DNA of 64,000 nt from a plasmid: sequence record NZ_CP069608.1, one strand, 5' to 3'. Below are positions 41,967 through 54,492 of this stretch, piece after piece (position 1 is the first letter of the stretch; each line of letters begins with the position of its first letter). Under the pieces are notes generated by a model. That model saw only the letters and a list, made by a program, of their open reading frames with translations, did not search any database and was not told the origin of the DNA. The translations under genes were made by a program, and so were the position numbers.

Positions 41967-43556
41967 CTATTCAGGTTTATTGTTTGCATTCGGAGCTGGT
42001 GTGAAAGAAGGTTTAAAATTCTTGTATTTTACTTCTGTAACCATTCCAGCAGAAGCATGATGTAAATCATGACAGTGAAACATCCAGTTTCCAGGATTGT
42101 CAGCCTTGAATGCTACAACGTATTCTTCACCTGGTTTAACATTTAGTGTATCTTTCATTAGTGGTGAACCTTCTATTGTCTTTCCGTTTTTACTCAACAC
42201 TTGAAAGAAATGTCCATGTAAATGCATTGGATGATCAGCTGATTTAGATGTGTTTTTCAACGTTACTTTAACTAAATCACCTTCTTTTACATTTAAAGGT
42301 TCAGTATTAGGATAGGTTCTATTGTTAATCGTATAAACCATGCTATTATCTTTCATGGCTGTACCAAGATTCATTTTATATTCAACATCATATTTACTAT
42401 CAAGAGAAAATTCACTTTTTGTAGTTTTACCATATTTAGTGATATCTACATTTGGTAAAGATTCTTCTGGATTTAGTTTATCATTATCTTTCTTTGAGTT
42501 ATCATAAACGATTTTAGCAACCATATTTTTAGCAGCATCGGTATCATCATGAGATTCAATATATGATGTACCAGGGTTATTAGCTTTGAATACTAAATCG
42601 TATCGTTCACCTGGAGAAACTGTCACCGTTTGATCTTTTATAGTAGCAGGATTATTGATTGGTTGCCCATCTGTTGAGAGAATTTTAAATTCATATCCAT
42701 GTAGGTGTATCTTATGAGAGATATATCCTGCATTGACTAAGCGAATTTTTACTGTATCTCCTTCAGTAACTTTTAGGGTTTCCATATTATTTTCACTTTT
42801 TCCATTAATGGTATAAAGATCATACATACTCATATCATCTTGCATATCCATATTCATATTCATTCCATCCATGCTTTCGGTTGAGTTATCTGTATCATTC
42901 TTATTTTCTTCACTTGTCATGGATCCATGGTCCATACCTTCCATGCTACTCTCACCAGACGAAATCCATTCATCTAAAACAAGTGTATAATCTTTATCTA
43001 CTTTTTCTTCATTTTTTCCTTCTATAATCAGCGTTCCATATAAACCTTTGTCTATTTGATTGACGCTATCCTGATGTGAATGATACCAATATGTTCCCGG
43101 AACAGAAGCTGTAAATTCATAAGTGAATGTTTTACCTGGCTGTACAGCATTCATAGTGACTCCAGGAATCCCATCTTGACTATTTGGAACAGGAAGTCCA
43201 TGCCAGTGGATTGTTACAGGTTCAGATAATTCATTTTTTAAGTTGATTTTAACCTTATCTCCTTGTTTGACTCGAATTTGGGATCCAGGGACAGAACCAT
43301 CATATGTCCAAACAGGTAATTTCGTTCCATTCCTAAAATCATGTGTAGCTTCTTTAGCAGTTAGAGTGAATTCCTTTCCTATCTTTACTTGTGTTGTTCG
43401 AGTAGAAGGGAATTTTTCTTTTTTACTTTGTTCTCCCTTGTTTGTATTATCCATGTCAGACATATCATGCCCTTTCATACTGTCTTCACTATTAGAGCAA
43501 GCAACTCCAGTCACAACTAACAATACTAAAATTAAAGTAAGACATAACTTTTTCAC
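41967..43556 (-). CDS. Lipoprotein multicopper oxidase (CueO/CopA-type) with Met/Asp-rich insert
   Basis: Lipobox LVVTGVACS. Copper-ligand motifs HWHGL, HSHQD, HPMHLHGH and HCHDLHHASAGM. Met-rich segment MEGMDHGSM…MDGMNMNMDMQDDMSMYD. Confidence 0.85.
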   Translation of the reverse strand: MKKLCLTLILVLLVVTGVACSNSEDSMKGHDMSDMDNTNKGEQSKKEKFPSTRTTQVKIGKEFTLTAKEATHDFRNGTKLPVWTYDGSVPGSQIRVKQGDKVKINLKNELSEPVTIHWHGLPVPNSQDGIPGVTMNAVQPGKTFTYEFTASVPGTYWYHSHQDSVNQIDKGLYGTLIIEGKNEEKVDKDYTLVLDEWISSGESSMEGMDHGSMTSEENKNDTDNSTESMDGMNMNMDMQDDMSMYDLYTINGKSENNMETLKVTEGDTVKIRLVNAGYISHKIHLHGYEFKILSTDGQPINNPATIKDQTVTVSPGERYDLVFKANNPGTSYIESHDDTDAAKNMVAKIVYDNSKKDNDKLNPEESLPNVDITKYGKTTKSEFSLDSKYDVEYKMNLGTAMKDNSMVYTINNRTYPNTEPLNVKEGDLVKVTLKNTSKSADHPMHLHGHFFQVLSKNGKTIEGSPLMKDTLNVKPGEEYVVAFKADNPGNWMFHCHDLHHASAGMVTEVKYKNFKPSFTPAPNANNKPE

Positions 43557-43751
43557 TACAGCACCCCCATATTAATTTAAATATGTCTACAATGTAATTT
43601 ATAATTGTGCAGAATGTTTGCAGATACTGTAAATAATTAATGGCTTACGAAATTTGTCTAAAGATAATTTTGAATTATTACCCAATCTGCACACTTTCTT
43701 CACATATTTTTTCTAAAATTTGTTGAAGGCTAAGTTAAAGGACGTGAAAAC

Positions 43752-45128
43752 ATGAATAGACTCTCATTAAAACTTGGCTTATTGTTTTTAGCTTTCATTC
43801 TATTGATTGAGGTTGGCTTATTTTTTTATCTATATACTGGGCTAGCTGGCACGAGAATTTCAGAGGAATTAGAAAGTTTAAGACTACGAGGGAACAGTCA
43901 TCGTGAGGTATTAGAGAAACACCATGATTCTGCTACCCTAAGCCATGTCGCTTTGATGGAATCAGAGGCAGAGACAGATGTAATTATTACAGATGAAGAT
44001 GGAAAGATTGTACGGACTTCTAGTCCTTTAGTAAAAGGAGCTAGAGAAGCTGTAGAACAATGGCAAGGCTATTCTCTTAGGTATAAAGGGGAAATTATGC
44101 AAGGGGATTGGAAAAACAAACCCTATATTGCGACTGCCTCTCCCATTAGACTAAACCAAAAAAACGCCGGAACTGTGTACATGTTTGAAAATACTAAAGA
44201 TATACAAGACATGATAGCTAGGCTTCAACACCATTTTTATATAGTTGGAGTTATTTCAGTGTTATTTTCAATTATCACTGTTTTTGCGCTTTCTAAATTT
44301 ATAACACTCCCTCTTATAAGAATGAAACAAGCAACTCAAAAGCTTAGTCAAGGAGATTTTTCTGTAAAGCTGGGTGCACATTCAAGAGATGAATTGGGCC
44401 AGTTAGGAACATCTATTCAAACCCTTGCTAATGAACTACATCGTTTAAAGGAAGAACGTAACGAATTTTTAAGTAGCATATCACATGAACTACAAACCCC
44501 CCTTATGTACTTAAAAGGGTATGCCGATGTAGCTAAACGCCAATCAAACAGTGAAGTGGAAAGAAATAAATACCTTAATATCATTGAAGAAGAGGCACAA
44601 AGGTTATCTCAACTAGTTAAAGATCTATTTCAACTTGCTCAACTTGATCAACATACATTTTTAATTCAAAAACAGAATGTCAAATTATATTCCTATTTAC
44701 ATCATATAATTCAGCATTTTGATTTGGTCTTAAAAGAAAAGGATATTCAACTGCATTTAAATTGCCCACAAGAAATTGAGGTGAATATTGACCCTGAAAG
44801 ATTCCAGCAAGTTGTTGTTAACTTGTTAGATAATGCATTGAAGTATTCTGACAATGGAACCGAAATTTTAATAATAGTGCGAGAACTACCTAAAAAAGTT
44901 ACGATTACCTTTAAAGATCAAGGAATAGGAATTCCTTCGACCGATCTTCCTTATGTCTTTGATAAATTGTATAGAGTAGAAAAATCGCGCTCAAGGAAAA
45001 GTGGAGGTTATGGTTTAGGATTATCTATTGTAAAAGAAATTGTGGAATCTCATGGAGGCGCAGTCACAATAGAAAGTGGGGTAGGAAAAGGCACTATGGT
45101 TGAAATCTTGTTAAGAGAGGATGTTTAG
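43752..45128 (+). CDS. Sensor histidine kinase (divergent from the multicopper oxidase gene)
   Basis: Two TMs, HAMP, H-box SISHELQTPL and HATPase_c motifs (DNALKYS, GGYGLGLSI). Confidence 0.85.
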   Translation: MNRLSLKLGLLFLAFILLIEVGLFFYLYTGLAGTRISEELESLRLRGNSHREVLEKHHDSATLSHVALMESEAETDVIITDEDGKIVRTSSPLVKGAREAVEQWQGYSLRYKGEIMQGDWKNKPYIATASPIRLNQKNAGTVYMFENTKDIQDMIARLQHHFYIVGVISVLFSIITVFALSKFITLPLIRMKQATQKLSQGDFSVKLGAHSRDELGQLGTSIQTLANELHRLKEERNEFLSSISHELQTPLMYLKGYADVAKRQSNSEVERNKYLNIIEEEAQRLSQLVKDLFQLAQLDQHTFLIQKQNVKLYSYLHHIIQHFDLVLKEKDIQLHLNCPQEIEVNIDPERFQQVVVNLLDNALKYSDNGTEILIIVRELPKKVTITFKDQGIGIPSTDLPYVFDKLYRVEKSRSRKSGGYGLGLSIVKEIVESHGGAVTIESGVGKGTMVEILLREDV

Positions 45129-45810
45129 AATGCCAACTATTTTGTTAGTTGATGATGAATCAAGGATGTTAGATCTACTTGAACTTTATCTTACTCCAAA
45201 TGGTTTTATATGTATTAAATTTGATTCTGGTATTGAGGCATTAAACTATCTAGAAGAAGGAAATGAAGCTGATTTAATGCTCTTGGATATTATGATGCCC
45301 GATAAAGATGGATGGGAGATATGTCATGAAGTTAGAAGTAGTTCCAAAATTCCAGTAATAATGCTAACCGCACGTAATCAAACCATTGATATAATAAAGG
45401 GTTTGAATACAGGAGCTGATGATTATATCGTTAAACCCTTTAGTGAAGGAGAACTGATTGCTCGCCTTAGAGCAGTATTAAGGAGAGTTTCAACAGAAAA
45501 TGAGGAGATTAACTATAAAGGATTATTATGGAGTCGAGAAAATCACCTGTTAAAATATGAAGATCAGGAAATACAAGTGACTCCAAAAGAATTTAAATTA
45601 GTAGGATTGCTCTTACAATACCCAAATAGAGTGTTTAGTCGTGAAGATTTATTAACCTCAGTATGGGGATACGATGCTGAAATTGAAGGAAGAACAATTG
45701 ATTCACATGTGCGAAATGTAAGAGATAAACTACGTAAAGCAAACTTTCCTGTAGATGACCACCTTCAAACTGTGTGGGGGCTAGGCTATAAATGGGTAGA
45801 CAGCAATTAA
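45121..45810 (+). CDS. OmpR-family response regulator
   Basis: Receiver domain (DDE…D…K) plus winged-helix C-terminus. Overlaps the HK stop. The HK→RR gene order is unusual. Confidence 0.85.
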   Translation: MFRMPTILLVDDESRMLDLLELYLTPNGFICIKFDSGIEALNYLEEGNEADLMLLDIMMPDKDGWEICHEVRSSSKIPVIMLTARNQTIDIIKGLNTGADDYIVKPFSEGELIARLRAVLRRVSTENEEINYKGLLWSRENHLLKYEDQEIQVTPKEFKLVGLLLQYPNRVFSREDLLTSVWGYDAEIEGRTIDSHVRNVRDKLRKANFPVDDHLQTVWGLGYKWVDSN

Positions 45811-46358
45811 AGCAAGTTGTTGTTGAGTGGTTATCTACCAATGAACTTATAGCCATATTAATTAGTCTATCCCTTAACATTGTCATAAGTATTTTAGGCA
45901 TTGTACCTAGTGTATTTCTTACAGCTGCAAACTTGAAAATATTTGGTTTTTGGGAAGGGACTATCATTTCATTTTTAGGAGAAGTTATAGGAACAAGTGT
46001 ATCTTTTTGGTTATATAAAAAGGGATTTAAATCAGTTTTAAGAAACAAGACGCAGAATCAACCTAAACTAGATAAACTCTTATCAACTACAGGAAAAGAT
46101 GCTTTTTCTCTAGTTATAGGCCTGCGCTTATTACCTTTTACACCTTCTGGATTGGTTACATTCCTTGCTGCTGTTGGAAATATGAGCTTTTCAATATTTT
46201 TCTTAGCCAGTACATTAGGAAAAATCCCTGCCATAGTCTTAGAATCCTATTCAACATATCAAGTGGTGAACTTAACGTTAGAAGGAAAAGTAATTTTAGC
46301 AGGGTTAGCGTTGATTTTAATTCTTTATGCCGTAAGGCGTAAAAAAACGAACAAATAA
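45792..46358 (+). CDS. TVP38/TMEM64 (DedA/SNARE-associated) family membrane protein
   Basis: VTT-domain motif GLRLLPFTPSGLVTFLAAV. Confidence 0.7.
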   Translation: MGRQQLKQVVVEWLSTNELIAILISLSLNIVISILGIVPSVFLTAANLKIFGFWEGTIISFLGEVIGTSVSFWLYKKGFKSVLRNKTQNQPKLDKLLSTTGKDAFSLVIGLRLLPFTPSGLVTFLAAVGNMSFSIFFLASTLGKIPAIVLESYSTYQVVNLTLEGKVILAGLALILILYAVRRKKTNK

Positions 46359-46462
46359 AATATTATTGCTCCCTAGTCTAACAGAATAACTCTCACAATC
46401 TTTTTTGCTTATTGCAAGGGTATTCATTAATTTTTTTTAAAAAAGGGCATTTAACCCTTCGC

Positions 46463-46484
46463 ATAGGGTACAGGGGTACCGTAT
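46463..46484. promoter_or_regulatory. Putative CsoR operator overlapping the -10 of the csoR-copZA promoter
   Basis: GC-rich pseudo-palindrome ATAGGGTACAGGGGTACCGTAT abutting TATAAT. Resembles the B. subtilis CsoR operator class (TACCC…GGGGTA). Confidence 0.35.
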
Positions 46485-46511
46485 AATATAATTATGAAAG
46501 GAGGAAATTAA

Positions 46512-46844
46512 ATGGATGAATTAGAAAAAATCACTGACAATGATAGTTGTTGTTCTATAAATAATGAACGTAGAAGTCATCACTCTCCAGAAGTGAAGAA
46601 AAACCTAACTAGTAGATTGAATCGCATAGAAGGACAAATTCGAGGGATTAAAGGATTAATTGAGAAAGATACTTATTGTGACGATATAATTACTCAAATT
46701 GCAGCCGTACAATCTGCTTTAAACGGTGTAAGTAAGATATTACTTGAAGGACACCTTAAACATTGTATAGTTGAGCGTGTTCAAGAAGGAGATAAAGAAG
46801 TAGTAGATGAATTATTGACAACAATTAAACGACTAATGAAATAA
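46512..46844 (+). CDS. csoR: Copper-sensing transcriptional repressor CsoR
   Basis: RLNRIEGQIRGI and YCDDIITQIAAVQSAL match CsoR, including the Cys-His-Cys Cu(I) ligands. Confidence 0.85.
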   Translation: MDELEKITDNDSCCSINNERRSHHSPEVKKNLTSRLNRIEGQIRGIKGLIEKDTYCDDIITQIAAVQSALNGVSKILLEGHLKHCIVERVQEGDKEVVDELLTTIKRLMK

Positions 46845-46852
46845 AAAAGGAG

Positions 46853-47068
46853 ATGTTAAGAATGGAAAAAGTAACGTTAACAGTTAAAGGAATGTCTTGT
46901 GGTCATTGTGTGAAATCTATTGAAGGAAGTGTTGGTGAACTTAACGGTGTACAACATGTAGAGGTAAATCTAAATGAAGCAAAGGTGTCCGTTGAATTTG
47001 ATCAAAACAAAGTATCGTTAGAATCAATTAAAGAAGATATTGATGACCAAGGTTATGAAGTAGCCTAA
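46853..47068 (+). CDS. copZ: Copper chaperone CopZ (HMA domain)
   Basis: GMSCGHC MxCxxC motif. 71 aa. Confidence 0.9.
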   Translation: MLRMEKVTLTVKGMSCGHCVKSIEGSVGELNGVQHVEVNLNEAKVSVEFDQNKVSLESIKEDIDDQGYEVA

Positions 47069-47149
47069 ATAAAATAGCGTGCGAATACTTCCGCACGCTT
47101 CCTTTAGGAATTGAATATACCTAATAGGGGTATAATAGGAGGTTATAAA

Positions 47150-49567
47150 ATGAGCGAACAGCAAAAAGAAACCACTTTACAAATTAGTGGCATGACCTGT
47201 GCAGCTTGTGCAAACCGTATCGAAAAAGGATTAAAGAAAATTGATGGTGTTCAGGATGCTAACGTAAATTTTGCATTAGAAAGATCAACCATTGTTTATG
47301 ATCCATCAAAAACAACTACTCAAGATTTTGAACAAAAAATTCAAAAATTAGGTTATGACATTGTAAATGAAAAAGATGAATTTAGTATTACAGGCATGAC
47401 TTGCGCAGCTTGTGCAAACCGAATTGAAAAAGGCTTGAATAAATTAGAGGGAGTCTCAAAGGCCACAGTCAATTTCGCATTAGAAACAGCAACAGTAGAA
47501 TATACCCCCTCCCAGGTAAGCACAACAGAAATGATTCAGCGAGTAGAAAAACTGGGATATGGAGCTATATTAAAGTCAGAAGAAAAAGAAGAAAATCTTA
47601 ATCATCGAGAGAAAGAAATTGAAAAACAAAAAGGGAAGTTTTGGTTTTCACTTATTCTAAGTTTCCCTCTGTTATGGGCAATGGTTAGTCACTTTTCATT
47701 TACTTCGTTTATTCCACTACCCGCCATGTTAATGAACCCATGGGTTCAATTAACTCTAGCAACTCCAGTACAGTTTATTGTAGGTAAACAATTTTACGTA
47801 GGTGCTTTCAAAGCACTCCGTAATAAAAGCGCAAATATGGATGTTCTCGTCGCCCTGGGAACCAGTGCAGCATATTTCTATAGTTTATATGTTTCAATTA
47901 AATCAATAGGCTCAAACGCTCCTATGATTGAACTATATTATGAAACAAGTGCCGTATTACTCACACTTATTATATTAGGTAAATTATTTGAAGCAAATGC
48001 TAAGGGACGTTCTTCTGAGGCTATCAAAAAACTTATGGGTTTACAGGCAAAAACAGCAACTGTTTTACGAAATGGTGAGGAAGTTGAGATTCCCATTGAA
48101 GAAGTACAATCAGGAGATATTGTTTATGTAAAACCTGGTGAAAAGGTACCTGTGGATGGGGAAATTGTAGAAGGTCAATCAGCCTTAGATGAATCCATGT
48201 TAACAGGAGAAAGTGTTCCAGTAGACAAAACCATTGGAGATGCAGTCATTGGAGCAACAATCAATAAAAATGGATTTTTAAAAGTAAAAGCGACAAAAGT
48301 CGGAAGAGACACAGCTTTAGCACAAATTATTAAAGTAGTGGAAGAAGCTCAGGGTTCAAAAGCACCTATTCAACGATTAGCTGACCAAATTTCCGGCATA
48401 TTTGTTCCAATTGTAGTTGGTATTGCAATTGTAACCTTTTTAATTTGGTATATCTGGGTTCAACCAGGTGATTTTGCTTTAGCACTAGAAAAATTAATTG
48501 CCGTATTAGTAATTGCTTGTCCATGTGCATTAGGGTTAGCAACTCCAACTTCTATTATGGCAGGATCAGGTCGTGCAGCAGAGTTTGGTATTTTATTTAA
48601 AGGTGGAGAACACTTAGAAACTACTCATAAAATCAATACCATTATCTTAGATAAAACAGGTACAGTCACAAACGGTACTCCTGAATTGACCGACGTATTT
48701 GTATCAAGTGGAATTGAAAATCAGGAGTTTTTAGAGTTAGTAGGTTCAGCTGAACGACAGTCTGAGCACCCTCTTGCTCAAGCAATTGTTGAAGGCATAA
48801 AGGTAAAAGGAATTAAGCTTGTTAGTCCTTCATCGTTTGAAGCTATTCCTGGTTTTGGGATTAAAGCTGTTGTAAATGAGAAAGAGTTATTAGTTGGAAC
48901 ACGTAAATTAATGAACCAGAATAATATCCAAATTGATAATGATTTAAAAAAAATGATTGAGTTAGAACGTGAAGGAAAAACAGCCATGCTGGTTGCTATT
49001 AATGGTCAATACGCAGGATTAATTGCTGTAGCTGATACCATCAAAGAAACTTCGAAAGAAGCTGTCACTCGATTAAAAGAGATGGGTTTAGAAGTCATTA
49101 TGATTACGGGTGATAATAAGCAAACTGCCCAAGCAATTGCTCAGCAAGTAGGTATTGAACATGTCATTGCTGAGGTATTGCCTGAAGGAAAAGCTGAGGA
49201 AGTGAAAAAACTCCAACATCAAGGTAAAAAAGTAGCGATGGTTGGAGACGGCATTAATGATGCACCTGCTTTAGCATTAGCTGATATCGGAATGGCCATT
49301 GGTACCGGTACAGATGTGGCGATGGAGGCTGCTGATATTACCTTAATGCGTGGTGATTTAAACAGTATTGCTGATGCGATCTTTATGAGTAAAAAGACAA
49401 TCCAAAATATTAAACAAAATTTATTTTGGGCATTTGGGTATAACACACTAGGTATACCGATTGCTGCGATTGGTTTATTAGCTCCTTGGTTAGCAGGCGC
49501 AGCAATGGCCTTTAGTTCTGTTTCTGTCGTTCTGAATGCACTAAGATTGCAAAGAGTGAAATTATAA
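47150..49567 (+). CDS. copA: Copper-translocating P1B-type ATPase CopA
   Basis: Two N-terminal HMA domains ([15 protein letters not shown] twice), [15 protein letters not shown], and HP and GDGIND motifs. Start refined to MSEQQ after AGGAGG. Confidence 0.9.
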
Positions 49568-49580
49568 AGGAGTGTAAGGA

Positions 49581-49745
49581 AATGAAAAAATGGATTGTTT
49601 CAGCTGTTTTATATCTCCTTATTGTTATAGCTGCTTATGCTATTTGGGCGAGTTTCAATGAGAGTCCAAAGAATGAACACCAAAATCATCAATCGATCTC
49701 TTATCCTACGCCGATTGAAAAAAGTTATAACATTAGGGTGCGATA
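49581..49745 (+). CDS. Small membrane protein (54 aa) immediately downstream of copA
   Basis: AAGGAG RBS. One TM. Below the ORF-track size cut-off. Confidence 0.3.
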
Positions 49746-49748
49746 GAG

Positions 49749-50078
49749 ATGGATATGCAGGGAGTACAAAAACATGTGTTAATCTGTAATGGAAAAAGCT
49801 GCGTCAAGAATGGTGGAGAACAAGTCGCAGAAGCGATTCGTGATGAGATAAAGAAAAGTGGTTGTACTAAATTTATTCATACAACTAAGACGTTATGTAA
49901 CGGTCAGTGTAAAAATGGAGCTATTACAATTCTGTATCCTGATGGTATCTGGTATAAAGAAATGGACGAAGACTCTGGAAGGAAGCTTATTAAAGAGATA
50001 AACACTCCCATTCCTTTAGAGCAAAAGATCCTATTGGACTATAAAAACCACCAATTTACTGAAAAGAAAACAGAATAG
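49749..50078 (+). CDS. Thioredoxin-like [2Fe-2S] ferredoxin-family protein
   Basis: C-x4-C…C-x3-C spacing (CNGKSC…CNGQC) typical of thioredoxin-like 2Fe-2S ferredoxins. Confidence 0.5.
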   Translation: MDMQGVQKHVLICNGKSCVKNGGEQVAEAIRDEIKKSGCTKFIHTTKTLCNGQCKNGAITILYPDGIWYKEMDEDSGRKLIKEINTPIPLEQKILLDYKNHQFTEKKTE

Positions 50079-50291
50079 CAAAAAGAGTTTAGCTTTTCTT
50101 TAGCTAAACTCTTTTTCTATACAGCTAAGGTAACAAATTTTCACGAAAAAAGGAAGTCTAACAGAATAATCTAATTATCTTCAAACTTTCTCTACAGTTT
50201 CATGGTTTAAATATTAAGATTATCGTTCTTTTATTATGTTTCTAAAATTATTAGGTCATTCTATAAGGTGAAATTATTTAATTCTCACTAA

Positions 50292-50313
50292 AACTGCACA
50301 AAAACTGCACAAA
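50292..50313. repeat. Tandem direct repeat AACTGCACAAA ×2 upstream of the DUF1541 gene
   Basis: Seen directly. Possible regulator half-sites. Confidence 0.4.
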
Positions 50314-50406
50314 ATTTATTTATGCTAAAGAAATAAAGTAATAGGAAAGTTTCTCATTTATACCATTGTTTTATTAAAGAGCGAATTCTATTGCTCAGAA
50401 AGAGGG

Positions 50407-50979
50407 ATGAAAATGAAAAAACAACTTTTTATTCTTGGAGTAGCAACAATTATAGGGCTGAGTGGTTGTGGAAATAATTCCAGCAATGATGATCAATCAA
50501 GTAATAAAAAGGAGTCAAATCAATCAGAGATGGATCACTCCAAGATGAATCATTCCGGTTCAAGCGAGGTTCCTGAAGGTTTACAAGAAGCGAAGAACCC
50601 AACATATAAGTTGGGAAGCGAAGCAACTATTAAAGCAGATCACATGAAAGGTATGAACGGTGCTAAAGCGACAATTGTTGGGGCTTATGATACTACAGTT
50701 TATACAGTTTCTTATACACCAACTACTGGTGGAGAAAAAGTAGCAAATCATAAATGGGTCATTCAAGAAGAAATTAAGGACGCTGATGATAAAACGTTAA
50801 AGCCAGGAACTGAAGTTACTCTAGAAGCAGATCACATGGAAGGTATGAAAGGCGCAAAAGCAACAATTGACTCAGCTGAAAAAACTACTGTATATATGGT
50901 TGATTACACACCAACTACTGGTGGAGAAAAGGTAACAAATCATAAATGGGTTACAGAAAATGAACTTTCTGCTAAATAA
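50407..50979 (+). CDS. YdhK/DUF1541-family lipoprotein with two tandem domains
   Basis: Lipobox LSGCG. Two repeats of ADHM(K/E)GM(N/K)GAKATI…TTVY(T/M)V(S/D)YTPTTGGEKV(A/T)NHKWV. His/Met-rich N-terminal linker. Confidence 0.65.
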   Translation: MKMKKQLFILGVATIIGLSGCGNNSSNDDQSSNKKESNQSEMDHSKMNHSGSSEVPEGLQEAKNPTYKLGSEATIKADHMKGMNGAKATIVGAYDTTVYTVSYTPTTGGEKVANHKWVIQEEIKDADDKTLKPGTEVTLEADHMEGMKGAKATIDSAEKTTVYMVDYTPTTGGEKVTNHKWVTENELSAK

Positions 50980-51145: not shown

Positions 51146-51475
51146 TTAAGATGCTAATTTCCTACATTCTTCTGCGCATTTCAAACAAGCATCTGCGCAC
51201 TTTTGACAGTGTTCATGGTCATGTTTTTTACACACGTTTCCACATGCTTCACAAATTTGAGCGCATGCCTGAGCTAATTCAGAGACAAAGGGTGTTCCTC
51301 TCCCTAAAGCTTGTTCCAAATACGCACAAATATCTGCGCACTCACGGTCAAGGCGAATACATTCAACCATCATATTTACATTTTCTTCTTTTAAACATGC
51401 ATCATAACAATGATTACATGCAGTCATACATTCATGTAACGTTTGAATAACAAATTGATAGTTTTCATGTGACAA
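51146..51475 (-). CDS. Csp3-like Cys-rich four-helix-bundle copper-storage protein (DUF326)
   Basis: 109 aa with 18 Cys in CxxxC/CxxC arrays on predicted helices, like B. subtilis YhjQ/Csp3. TTG start after AGGAGG. Confidence 0.65.
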   Translation of the reverse strand: MSHENYQFVIQTLHECMTACNHCYDACLKEENVNMMVECIRLDRECADICAYLEQALGRGTPFVSELAQACAQICEACGNVCKKHDHEHCQKCADACLKCAEECRKLAS

Positions 51476-51599: not shown

Positions 51600-51938
51600 T
51601 TAGCTGACACTTGCCATAACACGGCATTCTCTGGCACAGTCTAAACACATTTGAGCACACATCTGTGATTGTTGATCAGAAAACCTTGAACATTCATAGG
51701 CACATGCCTTACAAGTATAAGCACAGAATTTGCAAGCGTTTCTCATAGACTTGCTGTTGCGCGATACTAATTGCGTACATAATATACAAATATCACAACA
51801 ATCTCTAAGTAATTGGATTTGTTGAACTCTGGCATGTACATCAGGACTATGCAGAGAGAAATTTATTGTTTGTTCACACATTATCACGCAGTCTTGAAGT
51901 ATTTTCATCATATTTTGAAACATATTTACATCCATCAT
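51600..51938 (-). CDS. Second Csp3-like Cys-rich four-helix-bundle protein (paralog)
   Basis: Start refined to MMDVN after GGGGGA. About 112 aa with 17 Cys in similar arrays. Confidence 0.6.
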   Translation of the reverse strand: MMDVNMFQNMMKILQDCVIMCEQTINFSLHSPDVHARVQQIQLLRDCCDICILCTQLVSRNSKSMRNACKFCAYTCKACAYECSRFSDQQSQMCAQMCLDCARECRVMASVS

Positions 51939-52201
51939 GCTTTTTCCCCCTATTTGGTTCATTTAACACGATATTTTATGTAGATACTCTTCTCCATAGA
52001 ATCCTATCAAAACGTTAGAGGGTCTAAAATTTGTTCTTCACCAAACCACGGAGGTAAAAACTCTAACAAAACAACCAATATACAAGCAATTTTCTGGTCA
52101 ACTTAATCCCTTCTCTTCGAAATGTTGTTTCACATCTAAGTTTGTTTCTTTTATACTTTAAAACATAGAGATATGTAAATTGAAGGCGGTGAAAGTAACA
52201 T

Positions 52202-52606
52202 ATGAGTGAAAACCATAATGAATTACTATCAAATATCTTAGGACCTCTTGAATTAGAAGTAATGAAAGTTCTTTGGTCTAAGAAAGAAGCAACTGTTCAG
52301 GAAGTATTAGCAGATTTAAATAAACAAAATGAGTATGCTTACACCACAATCATGACGATTATGAATCGTTTAGATAAAAAGAGAATTCTTACACGTAATA
52401 AGGTAGGAAAGGGATATCAATATAAAGCTCGTTATAATCAGGATGAGCTTGTTCAACATACTTCATCTAAGAAGGTCGAACAACTTCTTGGAAACTATGG
52501 TGATGTTGCTATTGCACAGTTTGTCGATGCTGTTGGCCATAATCCAGATCAGCTAAATAAATTGAAACAACTTATTCAAAATTTAGAGAATGGGGAAGAA
52601 TCGTGA
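52202..52606 (+). CDS. BlaI/MecI/CopY-family winged-helix transcriptional repressor
   Basis: The N-terminal ELEVMKVLW…TVQEV…YAYTTIMTIMNRLDKKRIL matches the Penicillinase_R domain. It has no C-terminal CxC motif, so it is not CopY-type. Overlaps the next gene (ATGA). Confidence 0.8.
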   Translation: MSENHNELLSNILGPLELEVMKVLWSKKEATVQEVLADLNKQNEYAYTTIMTIMNRLDKKRILTRNKVGKGYQYKARYNQDELVQHTSSKKVEQLLGNYGDVAIAQFVDAVGHNPDQLNKLKQLIQNLENGEES

Positions 52607-53460
52607 TGCAATTATCTCGTCAGTATAGCATTTACATTGCATTTCTAGTTAGTATTACAGGTTCCTTTTCTCTCTGTTTTTTCGCCTATCACCATAAAGG
52701 GGAAAGTTTTTGGGATGGTATGCTTATGTGTTGTAATAGTCATTCGTGGGAACAAGTATTCAAGGTATTGGTTATCTTACTAGCGGTCTTATGTATATTA
52801 TTTATCGTTTATTTTGTGGGAATTGTTCAAAAGACAAAACAATTTCTTTCTACCCTAATCCCTTATAAAGTGAGAGGATTTTTTTCTCAAGAGATAGAAA
52901 CATTTCAAAAAAAATATTCAATACAAATTCATATTATCAATGATAAACGACCTATAGCTTTTACCTATGGGTTTGTTTTTCCTCAAATTATTATAAGTAC
53001 AGGGCTCCTTCAATTGTTAGATTCAGATGAGATAGAAGCTGTTTTAGAACATGAATATTGTCACTATAAAAATAAGGATCCTTTTAAATTGTCATTATAT
53101 AAATGTTTAGCACGCCTATTCTTTTTCTTGCCCATAACTGAAAAAATATTGAAACGCTATGTCACTCAAAAAGAATTAGCTGCAGATGCTTTTGCAATTG
53201 AACAAGTTGGGCTAAAACCAGTTGCTTCAGCTCTATATAAATTAATGACATATTCTTCACCTCTATCTTTCTCAATAGCTCATTTTCAAAATAATGATCT
53301 CAAAGATGTTCGTATTGAATTTCTTTTGACAGGTACACATACCAGGGCTTCTCTGAGCAAAAAAGAATGGACAGTCTCGGTTCTACATCTTATTTTTATT
53401 ACGCTGATAGCAGGATGTGTGTCATATTTGTGGCAAAATATATCTTCTATGATTTTATAA
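52603..53460 (+). CDS. BlaR1/MecR1-like M56 zinc metalloprotease with no sensor domain
   Basis: Four TMs. HExxH (LEHEYCHY). 285 aa, versus about 585 aa for BlaR1, so there is no extracellular PBP-like domain. Confidence 0.75.
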   Translation: MMQLSRQYSIYIAFLVSITGSFSLCFFAYHHKGESFWDGMLMCCNSHSWEQVFKVLVILLAVLCILFIVYFVGIVQKTKQFLSTLIPYKVRGFFSQEIETFQKKYSIQIHIINDKRPIAFTYGFVFPQIIISTGLLQLLDSDEIEAVLEHEYCHYKNKDPFKLSLYKCLARLFFFLPITEKILKRYVTQKELAADAFAIEQVGLKPVASALYKLMTYSSPLSFSIAHFQNNDLKDVRIEFLLTGTHTRASLSKKEWTVSVLHLIFITLIAGCVSYLWQNISSMIL

Positions 53461-53527
53461 TTACTACATAATTGTAGTAATGCATTGACTCCACTTTCAC
53501 CATCTACTACAATTGTGTAGTAGATGG
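53461..53527 (+). promoter_or_regulatory. Promoter with two BlaI-type operators (TACTACA-N4-TGTAGTA)
   Basis: Operator 1 is TTACTACATAATTGTAGTAA (53461-53480). -35 TTGACT (53485-53490), a 17-nt spacer and -10 TACAAT (53508-53513). Operator 2 is CCATCTACTACAATTGTGTAGTAGATGG (53500-53527) and overlaps the -10. The TACA/TGTA dyads match the BlaI/MecI recognition core. Confidence 0.7.
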
Positions 53528-53577
53528 TGTGTTCTATAGACTCCATCTCTATTCCATGTAAGAAGGAGAGGAAAAAC

Positions 53578-53817
53578 ATGAAAATAAAAAAAACAGTTGC
53601 GGGTTTATCCTTTGTTGCCCTAATGGCAGTTGGAGGAACAGTTTTTGCAGCTAGTCCAGCAGATCATAAACCTATGAGTGAAAAAGATTGTATGGAAATG
53701 AGTAAGAAAGACTGTATGAAGATGATGAAAAATATGAGTGAAGAGGATTGTATGGAAATGATGAAAGGCATGAGTAAAAAAGATTGTATGAAAATGATGA
53801 AAGAGATGAAAAAATAA
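53578..53817 (+). CDS. Secreted 79-aa Met/Cys-rich tandem-repeat peptide
   Basis: GAAGGAG RBS. Signal peptide (…VFAASPA). Four repeats: EKDCMEMSK, KDCMKMMK, EEDCMEMMK and KKDCMKMMK. A terminator follows. Confidence 0.6.
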   Translation: MKIKKTVAGLSFVALMAVGGTVFAASPADHKPMSEKDCMEMSKKDCMKMMKNMSEEDCMEMMKGMSKKDCMKMMKEMKK

Positions 53818-53879
53818 AGCTTTAGTGTAAGAAACCTATTATATCTAATATTAAAGTTATCATACTACTAATCTAAGAC

Positions 53880-53915
53880 AAGAGAGCCAACTTTTAATGT
53901 TGGCTTTTTTATTTC
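53880..53915 (+). terminator. Rho-independent terminator after the repeat-peptide gene
   Basis: AGCCAAC TTTTAAT GTTGGCT followed by TTTTTTATTT. Confidence 0.6.
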
Positions 53916-54170
53916 ATGTTAAATAACTTCCAATGGCGAAATTTCAACCATATTGAGAGGCTTTTTAATACTGTCTTGGTGTCATTTAATGATACTTTAT
54001 CGAACATGGTTAGCATATGGATCATATACTTCTGTAAGCAATAAAATACTTACTGATAAAATTATTGTTCCTACTAATAACAACCCATTACTTACAATTT
54101 TGTTGTTCTTTTTACCTAAAAAGAGGCCAAAAGGTTTTATAAACTAATAAGAATACCAGGAATCAAAAAG

Positions 54171-54207
54171 AAAGGAGCCTGATTATAATGAATTCAGGCT
54201 CCTTTAA
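54171..54207. terminator. Terminator at the 3' end of the ars operon
   Basis: GGAGCCTGA…TCAGGCTCC hairpin flanked by A- and T-runs. Confidence 0.55.
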
Positions 54208-54492
54208 TTAACAACAGCTATTATCCATTCCTACTAATACAAAGCCTGACCCCTGAGGACTTTCTTGTACATCAAGCGTAAGACCTTCAGTTGAAGTTAA
54301 TACTGTGTTTTCAATCGCTACTTGAATACCGTTGATTTCTTGTACTGTATCATTTTCAGCTGGTACATCTAACGATAAACCTATTTGAGGACCACAACAT
54401 CCAGCACCTTCAGAATAGAAACGGATACCTTTTGCACCTTGTTTTGCGAATACGTCATCTAACATTTTTTTTGCTTCATTTGTGATATTCAT
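54208..54492 (-). CDS. HesB/IscA-fold small protein with two vicinal Cys pairs (ars operon accessory)
   Basis: IscA-like layout (GIRFYSEGAGCCGPQ…) but with GCCG and a C-terminal SCC in place of the canonical Cys ligands. Last gene of the ars transcription unit. Confidence 0.55.
   Translation of the reverse strand: MNITNEAKKMLDDVFAKQGAKGIRFYSEGAGCCGPQIGLSLDVPAENDTVQEINGIQVAIENTVLTSTEGLTLDVQESPQGSGFVLVGMDNSCC

Follow-up and report, generated by a model that had tools for sequence, protein, structure and literature searches.

A module of three co-oriented genes, encoding a BlaI-family repressor, an M56 membrane protease and a secreted peptide rich in Cys and Met, is located in a 64 kb stretch of a Priestia megaterium plasmid (NZ_CP069608.1; hereafter 'the window', whose positions are used for all coordinates unless a locus is named). 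Based on sequence and prediction alone, the module is best explained as a metal switch similar to PetR/PetP that drives the synthesis of a metal-binding peptide, and we hold this explanation as a whole with slightly better than even confidence. The repressor and the protease belong to the BlaI/MecI and M56 families, the peptide gene is preceded by two operators and a promoter of conserved geometry, the peptide carries an export signal and has an unusual composition, and the module is associated with metal-resistance islands. The components of the explanation differ in strength. The logic of repressor, operators and promoter is very probable, inactivation of the repressor by proteolysis through the adjacent protease is probable, and a role of the peptide in metal buffering has a somewhat better than even chance.

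The proposed mechanism is a regulated-proteolysis switch of the BlaIR type and of the sensor-less PetR/PetP kind, devoted to a single promoter. In the off state, repressor dimers would occupy both operators, one abutting the -35 element and the other on the -10 element and the start site, and would silence the peptide gene. A thiophilic metal, most probably Cu(I) (or Ag(I)), would bind the outward His/Met/Cys-Cys loop of the protease, about 25 residues long, and switch on the zinc-protease domain in the cytoplasm. Cleavage of the repressor by the protease at Gln106-Phe107, in the dimerisation helix, would follow, and repression would be lifted. The Sec-exported, flexible Cys/Met peptide would bind ions of soft metals in the cell-wall space and serve, in the manner of SilE/PcoE, as a sacrificial sponge or buffer, and would complement the adjacent cytoplasmic CsoR-CopZ-CopA and Csp3 systems. 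Of these steps, we infer the cleavage, the sensing by the loop, the identity of the signal and the binding of metal by the peptide from the features described below.

The repressor

The product of the first gene matches Penicillinase_R (PF03965) with 101 bits against a cut-off of 22.6 and covers profile positions 1-114 of 115, which makes it a member of the superfamily. Its alignments in the Protein Data Bank (PDB) are to MecI, BlaI and Mycobacterium tuberculosis Rv1846c (Mtb BlaI). It falls below the curated cut-offs for CopY_TcrY (TIGR02698; 64.7 versus 121.95), BlaI and MecI. An identical repressor is on record from a Priestia megaterium plasmid.

There is no cysteine in the 134 residues of the repressor and none is conserved among 12 homologues, and the CxCx4CxC/CxC site of the CopY type is absent. 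Lacking Cys and CxC, the repressor cannot sense metal in the way CopY does, and therefore the signal must enter via the protease. In BlaI and MecI, the scissile position is Asn101-Phe102 (PMC1935004). The bond that aligns with it in the repressor is Gln106-Phe107 (52517-52522), which lies within the stretch GD(I/V)AI(A/T)QFVDAVGHNP, invariant in 12 loci.

No operator-like site was found upstream of 52202 with up to 3 mismatches allowed. Because no TACTAC operator precedes the repressor gene, the repressor-protease operon is probably not autoregulated, and its candidate promoter at 52129-52157 is plausibly constitutive.

The protease and its outward loop

The stop codon of the repressor gene overlaps the start of the protease gene (GTGATG; 52603-52606). 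The true protease start is probably the ATG at 52606, with a 1-nt overlap (TGATG), because the homologues begin at ATG. Translational coupling of a BlaI/MecI repressor to an M56 protease, as described in the initial annotation, is supported by this overlap and by Pfam matches to both families.

The protease scores 53 bits against the Pfam M56 model (cut-off 31) and has the HExxH motif (HEYCH, 53050-53064) and the downstream Glu/Asp of an M56 zinc protease; H150, E151, H154, E191 and D195 (HEYCH...ExxxD) are invariant among its homologues. Hydropathy and the positive-inside rule predict three transmembrane (TM) helices (residues 10-28, 57-75 and 258-276), a cytoplasmic HExxH domain, and an outward loop at residues 29-55. 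The protein ends 9 residues past the last TM helix. Its match to the BlaR1 model covers about positions 108-254 of 585, with 30.7 bits against a cut-off of 400, and the penicillin-binding sensor domain is absent. Thus the protease is half the length of BlaR1 (285 aa against the 585-position model, with nothing after the last TM helix) and has no beta-lactam-sensing domain, as first described. In the AlphaFold2 (AF2) model, which has a predicted local distance difference test (pLDDT) score of 75.9, the protease domain is confident; the best fold match in the PDB is BlaR1 of S. aureus (8exp, E 1.3e-4), followed by ZMPSTE24 and HtpX-like proteins.

The outward loop (AYHHKGESFWDGMLMCCNSHSWEQ) holds His-His, Met-x-Met, the vicinal Cys43-Cys44 (52729-52734) and a further His. 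C43 is invariant across 23 protease homologues, Cys-Cys is present in most of them, Met and His recur, and a third Cys appears in a second clade. Cys272, close to the outer end of the last helix, is nearly invariant. The proteases of the Thermoactinomycetaceae, described below, retain H-C-C in the equivalent loop (LDWLHRCC, WMDHCCD). Distant actinobacterial M56 relatives (P0034-P0047) were considered as informants on the loop, and were rejected for this purpose as too divergent in the N-terminal region.

Operators and promoter

Operator 1 starts two nucleotides after the protease stop codon, and the -10 element lies within operator 2. The two operators are exactly 43 bp apart, and since this offset is about four helical turns, both would lie on the same face of the DNA. 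The pattern TACTAC-N6-GTAGTA has only two matches in the 64 kb and none in 100 dinucleotide-preserving shuffles; in about 300 kb of flanks of the loci it occurs at the peptide promoter only.

The half-site TACTAC is invariant among the loci and the seventh base is variable; the dyad is therefore TACTAC-N6-GTAGTA, i.e. TACA-N4-TGTA. Every locus with both operators has the 43-bp offset, with operator 1 ending 5 nt before TTGAC and TACAAT inside operator 2, and TTGAC and TACAAT are kept at the same spacing across loci. Operator 1 is at the same position in 9 of the 12 distinct loci. It is degenerate in the B. cereus type, and in B. pseudomycoides both operator 1 and the -35 element are lost. The placement of the two palindromes on either side of a TTGACT-17-TACAAT promoter, one of them overlapping the -10, was confirmed at the stated positions and is conserved in nearly all loci.

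The operators of BlaI/MecI and CopY have the core TACA-NN-TGTA (TACANNTGTA; PMC1935004, PMC7253601). This core is absent from the operators of the module, in which the spacing is 2 bp wider (N4). Such a variant spacing is compatible with membership in the superfamily, and the mecA half-site (GACTACAT) is similar to that of the module. The sites were initially annotated as twin perfect palindromes with the BlaI core dyad: the palindromes are indeed perfect, but the spacing is N4 and not the N2 of BlaI.

The palindrome of operator 2 extends beyond its core, with arms of 14 bp in the window and up to 19 bp elsewhere, usually with a T-rich tract behind it. Extended palindromes of this kind are also found at L002 6592-6641, L004 6289-6338 and L006 6840-6889, among others, and the predicted RNA hairpins range from -12 to -29 kcal/mol. 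Outside the TACTAC core, the outer arms covary in 11 loci, with 6 pairs changed on both sides. In the true register, 89.5% of the cells are paired, versus 31-54% in slid registers, and the covariation score is 0.239 versus 0.108 for shuffles, none of 500 of which reaches it. Because contacts with a protein would conserve bases rather than make them covary, operator 2 probably also encodes the terminator hairpin of the repressor-protease transcript, which would overlap the -10 element of the next promoter. The peptide gene would then be insulated from read-through. An anti-Shine-Dalgarno or 5'-UTR (untranslated region) switch is unsupported, as the predicted UTR folds vary between loci, and a scan of 51900-54200 against Rfam, with E up to 1, found no known RNA element.

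The secreted peptide

The signal of the 79-aa pre-peptide is of the Sec type and comprises residues 1-24 (53578-53649; MKIKKTVAGLSFVALMAVGGTVFA|ASP), with an AxA cleavage site (VFA|AS). The mature peptide has 55 residues, among them 4 Cys, 15 Met, 13 Lys and 11 Asp/Glu, and consists largely of four repeats, initially given as DCM(E/K)MMK and here as DCMxM(M/S)K. At the DNA level the repeats have a period of 24/36 nt. The AF2 model of the peptide has a pLDDT of 56 and four short helices of low confidence.

No family in Pfam or NCBIfam matched the peptide. Hits to Pfam DUF6488 (E 0.007) and to NCBIfam SbtA (E 0.016) do not reach the cut-offs and are confined to the signal peptide, and tape-measure matches obtained with long variants are repeat artefacts. 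The idea of an amphipathic helix with a Cys/Met face, forming a Csp-like bundle, is unsupported by the low pLDDT and by the helical resultant (0.07-0.36), and no match to the Csp/DUF326 models, which would indicate the four-helix bundle of Csp, was found. The family is small, with seven 90%-identity clusters among 5.8 billion sequences, and a profile search gave four true matches among 1.84 billion 50%-identity representatives.

The homologues always consist of a signal peptide and the (D/E)CMxMMK unit, and have 72-172 aa and 3-14 repeats. In their mature forms, Cys and Met make up 30-39% of the residues with a Met:Cys ratio of 3-4:1, the charge is near neutral, and there are 0-2 His. Long forms (L006 6921-7439, L012 8976-9491 and L004 6373-6786) are built on a 17-residue unit, DCMKMMK-DCMAMGMSA(E/K). 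The range of repeat number among close relatives suggests rapid expansion and contraction of the array, and may be regarded as expected of a stoichiometric binder.

The database entry P0001 (97 aa) starts the peptide reading frame at an upstream in-frame ATG at 53524. This ATG is just past operator 2, about 10-15 nt after the -10 element, and is without a ribosome-binding site. All other homologues start at MK(I)KK, and the P0001 start is probably an over-extended gene call.

Table 1. Features of the module in the window
Feature	Position	Strand	Remarks
Candidate sigma-A promoter of the repressor-protease operon, TTCACA-17-TATACT	52129-52157	+	Consensus scan
BlaI/MecI/CopY-family winged-helix repressor, 134 aa	52202-52606	+	Pfam Penicillinase_R E 6.7e-29
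Sensor-less BlaR1-like M56/M48 membrane zinc metalloprotease, 284/285 aa	52603-53460	+	Pfam M56 3.9e-14, M48 1.9e-12
Predicted extracytoplasmic loop, residues 29-55, AYHHKGESFWDGMLMCCNSHSWEQVFK	52687-52767	+	Candidate signal-sensing site
Operator 1, TACTACA-TAAT-TGTAGTA, TACTACATAATTGTAGTA	53462-53479	.	Ends 5 nt upstream of -35
Peptide promoter, TTGACT (53485-53490), 17 nt, TACAAT (53508-53513)	53485-53513	+	Consensus scan
Operator 2, core TACTACA-ATTG-TGTAGTA, TACTACAATTGTGTAGTA, 53505-53522	53498-53529 (including extended arms)	.	Covers -10 and start site
Pre-peptide gene, 79 aa	53578-53817	+	Good ribosome-binding site before ATG; located after the protease gene in all Bacillaceae loci examined
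Intrinsic terminator of the peptide gene, GCCAAC/GTTGGC stem and T-run	53880-53915 (hairpin 53880-53910)	+	Follows the peptide gene

Conservation of the module

Loci were gathered by searches with the protease, the peptide and the repressor; in a scan of contigs, a single protease sequence yielded no locus and an alignment yielded 5. A neighbourhood search for DCM-repeat peptides behind blaI/M56 pairs had been suggested in the initial annotation. The three-gene arrangement was found to recur in at least 12 distinct Bacillaceae loci, in five genera and on both plasmids and chromosomes. The hosts are Priestia, Peribacillus, the B. cereus group, B. pseudomycoides, B. rhizoplanae, Metabacillus, Ectobacillus funiculus and a metagenome-assembled genome of Bacillota. 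In the B. cereus group, the protease is present on at least 72 contigs.

Plasmid NZ_CP067070 of Bacillus sp. HNR-4 has two paralogous modules about 16 kb apart (L001 5170-6774 and L022 6600-8212). The former adjoins a PCYCGC/'CopZ family' gene and CadC/CadA, and the latter adjoins CadC/CadA, a cysteine-dioxygenase-family gene, insertion sequence (IS) elements, Csp and Nramp. The two repressors may well cross-talk, as the two copies have nearly identical operator-2 sequences. In the B. cereus-group version of the module, a CDO_I cupin gene (L009 9349-9927, L022 8349-8927) lies 137 nt downstream of the peptide gene on the same strand. This cysteine-dioxygenase-family gene may be co-transcribed with the peptide gene.

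A third type of paralogue, with a repressor that is 62% identical, is found in P. megaterium (L023 6001-10734, JARVWM010000004; L024). It includes a gene for a DCM-repeat peptide and twin operators of its own, again 43 bp apart, and is located beside genes of the ycnJ/ycnI-like kind, one for a CopC/CopD fusion and one for a DUF1775 protein. In L023, an in-frame TAG interrupts the peptide gene ahead of its last repeat, and the gene call for the protease gives a shortened product of 232 aa.

The Thermoactinomycetaceae exhibit a gene order of their own, namely one TACTACAAT...GTAGTA operator containing TACAAT, followed by the gene of a CWB2 cell-wall-binding lipoprotein, the repressor and the protease, for example in Paenactinomyces guangxiensis (L007 1863-4623) and Thermoactinomyces (L025/L026 4644-7223). 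The lipoprotein has about 400-430 aa and His/Met-rich termini, e.g. GHEEHMPMQGNNGHGEHMGHH, with tails without Cys. This version appears to be common, since the repressor occurs in 232 blocks of the collection index.

Metal-resistance islands and the identity of the signal

All of the 12 distinct loci sit in Cu/As/Cd metal-resistance islands. Copper genes (CsoR-CopZ-CopA, Csp, CopC/CopD, SCO1, PCYCGC, YdhK) are near the module in 8-9 of the 12, and CsoR-CopZ-CopA is directly upstream of it in three loci. In the window, the upstream genes encode a multicopper oxidase, a two-component system, CsoR, CopZ, CopA, a thioredoxin-like [2Fe-2S] protein and a YdhK/DUF1541 lipoprotein; two Csp3-like genes (51146-51475 and 51600-51962) are directly upstream and divergent; and a convergent ars operon (arsR-B-C-D-A, with an additional phosphatase gene and a HesB-like one) is downstream. 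The neighbours thus bear out a location within a copper/arsenic island. Of the initial description of the module as divergent from two Csp3-like genes, the divergence holds, but the second gene matches the Csp models weakly (see below).

No beta-lactamase or penicillin-binding protein (PBP) gene adjoins the module in the 12 loci. The view that this is a metal system and not one of antibiotic resistance is therefore strengthened, while specificity for copper is not established by the neighbours. We consider it reasonably probable that a soft metal is the signal and that copper is the most likely one, and the metal-linked reading is the best supported. Cu(I)/Ag(I) is favored because Met exceeds Cys in the peptide, because the effectors of the relatives are His/Met proteins, and because PetR/PetP provides a precedent.

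The same switch might instead respond to arsenite, or to cadmium, zinc or lead, with the Cys-Cys loop sensing As(III)/Cd(II) and the Cys residues of the repeats binding the ion outside the cell, although we regard this as unlikely. Neighbouring genes lend it some support. Flanking ars operons are found in 7 of the 12 loci, and in two (L002 and L004) they are the sole metal genes within 6 kb. CadC/CadA pairs, with the ELCVCD regulator motif and the P1B-2 ATPase signature, flank 4-5 of the 12 loci, including L001, L009/L022 and L012; neighbouring pairs of ArsR and a P-type ATPase turned out to be of this CadC/CadA type. Moreover, As(III) is classically bound by vicinal cysteines, as in ArsD. However, Met outnumbers Cys in the peptide by 3-4:1, and extracytoplasmic Met-rich motifs, such as those of SilE, are typical of Cu(I)/Ag(I) and not of As/Cd. 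The relatives with other effectors have His/Met tails without Cys, the module follows CsoR-CopZ-CopA immediately in three loci, and a paralogue adjoins ycnJ/ycnI-like genes. In addition, the sole characterised metal-responsive relative without a sensor domain responds to Cu.

Copper stress itself produces oxidants, and the peptide could be a sacrificial sink for oxidants or electrophiles, with the thiols of the protease loop sensing oxidation; this has a rather low probability. Cys-Cys loops are able to serve as redox sensors, and MrpX, under SigF/NrsF (PMC4436054), offers a parallel for a small secreted protein that is very rich in Met and has an envelope-signal switch dedicated to it. Against such a role, the neighbourhoods read contain no methionine sulfoxide reductase gene (PMSR, SelR or MsrP), the consistent context is one of metal resistance, and the peptide is unrelated in sequence to curated families, those of Met-rich repeats included.

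Several observations indicate mobility of the module. The P. megaterium plasmid p9 (L003, NZ_CP059466) shares with the window the flanking genes for YdhK, Csp3, the HesB-like 'adhesin', the phosphatase and arsA, but carries an ArsR gene and a gene for a flavin adenine dinucleotide (FAD)-dependent oxidoreductase where the window has the second Csp3-like gene and the module. Because p9 keeps the flanks and holds other genes in its place, the module appears to be an exchangeable cassette. Genes for an integrase, IS6 or a resolvase border it in L012, L009 and L020.

Such cassette behavior, including the absence from the otherwise syntenic p9, would also be expected if the islands merely reflected co-mobilisation, and the module were an envelope regulator of the BlaIR type that responds to an unrelated signal. 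The peptide would then have a non-metal role, e.g. in wall modulation, as an antimicrobial or bacteriocin-like peptide, or as a precursor of a metallophore or of a ribosomally synthesized and post-translationally modified peptide (RiPP). The signals of most BlaIR systems are unknown, CenIR controls an exported orphan protein, and a C39 peptidase gene is 1 kb away in L001. Even so, we assign only a small probability to this explanation. Hitch-hiking is hard to invoke, because all 12 loci, in five genera and on plasmids as well as chromosomes, are in metal islands, and the composition of the peptide is extreme in exactly the ligands of soft metals. No modification enzyme, dedicated ABC exporter or immunity gene is conserved beside the module in the 12 loci, and the C39 gene occurs in one locus only. 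The peptide also has an ordinary Sec signal with an AxA site in place of a leader, unlike a RiPP, lantibiotic or metallophore precursor. The option of a metallophore or signalling peptide, offered in the initial annotation, finds no support, given the lack of modification and export genes and the ordinary Sec signal.

Some points weigh against a copper-responsive switch with a metal-buffering peptide. The ars and cadCA neighbours are about as frequent as the cop neighbours, and the context points to 'soft metals' rather than to copper over arsenic or cadmium. The outward loop is modelled with pLDDT < 50, and because of this low confidence its role as a sensor is argued from conservation and topology; of its two vicinal cysteines, the second is missing from the B. 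cereus type, and its His residues vary. The operator corresponds to neither the BlaI/MecI core (N2) nor the PetR site (GAC-N5-GTC). As regards the peptide, its Cys and Met residues form no clear helix face, with a resultant of 0.2-0.36, and once exported, the Cys may be oxidised to disulfides outside the Bacillus cell. The premature stop in the peptide gene of the P. megaterium paralogue suggests that the peptide is dispensable in some backgrounds.

Comparison with known systems

Among approximately 15,000 BlaIR systems, only some 6% carry a domain that binds beta-lactams, and about 94% are without it (PMC13081940). Orphan sensor-less BlaR proteins are described in the literature from M. tuberculosis, M. 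abscessus, P. aeruginosa and C. difficile. In Synechocystis sp. PCC 6803, PetR/PetP is a copper-dependent proteolytic switch for plastocyanin and cytochrome c6, in which PetP degrades PetR only with Cu present and two Met in the outward loop of PetP are the proposed ligands (10.1101/2020.07.31.226407).

The anatomy of the module corresponds to that of PetR/PetP. In both, the repressor stop overlaps the start of a gene for a membrane protease of about 280 aa that matches M48 and M56 and lacks a C-terminal sensor domain; the HExxH domain is cytoplasmic and placed between TM helices; and a short outward loop with sulfur ligands (Met and Cys in the module) is the proposed metal site. Both repressors are without the metal site of CopY, and in both the operon of the regulators appears unregulated, as the petRP mRNA is unresponsive to copper and no operator was found here. 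The two systems belong to different phyla and differ in several respects. PetP has four TM helices and two conserved loop Met, whereas the protease of the module has three helices and a His/Met/Cys-Cys loop. The site of PetR is GAC-N5-GTC, and PetR is an activator of one gene as well; the module has twin TACTAC-N6-GTAGTA operators at one promoter. The output of PetRP is a swap of metalloproteins and that of the module a secreted Cys/Met peptide; and the copper dependence, demonstrated for PetRP, is only proposed for the module.

The module shares with BlaI/BlaR1 and MecI/MecR1 of S. aureus and B. licheniformis the repressor fold, a Phe aligned with the scissile position, the TACA half-site, the M56 gluzincin fold and the presence of two operators bracketing a promoter (PMC1935004). 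It differs in having no penicillin-binding domain, N4 instead of N2, no beta-lactamase or PBP2a gene, and no operator at the regulator operon. With CopY/TcrY of the Lactobacillales it has in common the family of the DNA-binding domain, a TACA...TGTA box, two operators and the copper context (PMC7253601, PMC11672702). In contrast, CopY has the C-terminal CxCx4CxC/CxC site and the N2 spacing, and acts without a protease.

CenI/CenR of C. difficile is likewise a sensor-less BlaIR pair of a Firmicute, and the gene that it represses most strongly, 500-fold, lies just downstream and codes for a small orphan protein exported by Sec. CenR, however, carries a long unstructured C-terminal tail, and CenIR is an essential system with a regulon of about 12 cell-envelope genes, without a metal context and with a target that is not Cys/Met-rich.

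For the peptide, the closest analogies are functional. SilE/PcoE of Enterobacteria are small, secreted, disordered proteins with repeated soft-metal motifs that are encoded in metal islands and strongly induced by an envelope metal sensor (PMC5008109). They have no sequence relation to the peptide, which has no Pfam or NCBIfam match to their family and has Cys/Met in place of His/Met; SilE/PcoE use HxxM/MxxH motifs without Cys, are under two-component control and act in the Gram-negative periplasm, so that the analogy is one of function only and the Cys ligands are a new element. MrpX of Azospira suillum, the main analogy outside metal biology, is likewise small, exported and Met-rich, and an envelope stress switch is dedicated to it (PMC4436054). 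It differs in being a hypochlorite scavenger with an adjoining methionine sulfoxide reductase and in its control, which is by a sigma/anti-sigma pair; it lacks Cys repeats and is not homologous to the peptide.

The arrangement had been called uncharacterised. This holds for the effector peptide, as no paper was found in a full-text literature search for its repeat motif, and nothing specific was found in the literature on a link of Bacillus or Priestia copper biology to BlaI/M56. The sensor-less state, on the other hand, is that of the majority of BlaIR systems, and because the copper-responsive PetR/PetP is already characterised, the concept is less unprecedented than was implied. What appears to be new is the peptide family and the candidate extracytoplasmic thiolate sensor loop in Firmicutes.

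Other genes of the island

A complete copper island occupies 41967-50979 of the window. It comprises genes for the multicopper oxidase, which has Met/His/Asp-rich inserts, a histidine kinase and response regulator, a DedA-like protein, CsoR, CopZ, CopA, the thioredoxin-like [2Fe-2S] protein and the YdhK/DUF1541 lipoprotein, which has two domains. In the window, the CopA and [2Fe-2S]-like genes are adjacent to each other, and YdhK and the Csp3 pair separate them from the module. The CopA and [2Fe-2S]-like genes of L018 and L020 immediately precede the module and have an unannotated gene of about 290 aa between them.

The second Csp3-like gene (51600-51962, minus strand) encodes a Cys-rich product of 120 aa, whose matches to Csp/DUF326 (E 1.6e-3 and 2.2e-4) are weak and under the cut-offs. 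The product is 37% identical to a Csp3-like open reading frame (ORF) adjoining the module in L005, and may represent a divergent Csp3 subfamily. The HesB/IscA-like gene at the end of the ars operon (54208-54492, minus strand) has a match to Fe-S_biosyn (E 3e-5) and a C-terminal Cys-Cys. In RefSeq plasmids this gene carries the label 'adhesin', which is likely to be wrong.

Implications

Plasmid-borne 'BlaI / M56' genes of this type should not be annotated as regulators of antibiotic resistance. The cassette provides a concrete hypothesis on the ligand of one clade among the many orphan BlaIR systems, and is compact enough to be tested directly. The peptide represents a new and very small family, one-third of whose residues are Cys and Met, and may be of interest for metal-binding chemistry, biosensing and bioremediation; for biosensing, a tightly repressed promoter with a defined operator would be an additional attraction.

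Copper sensing in Gram-positive bacteria, as now understood, is cytoplasmic and is carried out by CsoR and CopY. The detection and buffering of metals at the cell surface of Firmicutes are little understood. The module would carry the PetRP paradigm from the switching of metalloproteins in cyanobacteria over to metal defence. It is conceivable, though we put this forward tentatively and with less than even confidence, that it is the first extracytoplasmic soft-metal sensor of Firmicutes to act by regulated proteolysis, that its minimal BlaR-like protease reads Cu(I)/Ag(I) (or As/Cd) at the cell wall through the Cys-Cys/Met/His loop, that it switches on a hitherto unknown class of exported thiolate/thioether repeat peptides, which buffer metal on the outer side of the membrane and whose capacity evolves by expansion from 3 to 14 repeats, and that the same clade of regulators drives the His/Met lipoproteins of the Thermoactinomycetaceae. 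If this is true, an 'outside-in' metal defence would exist throughout the family, in parallel with CsoR and CopY in the cytoplasm.

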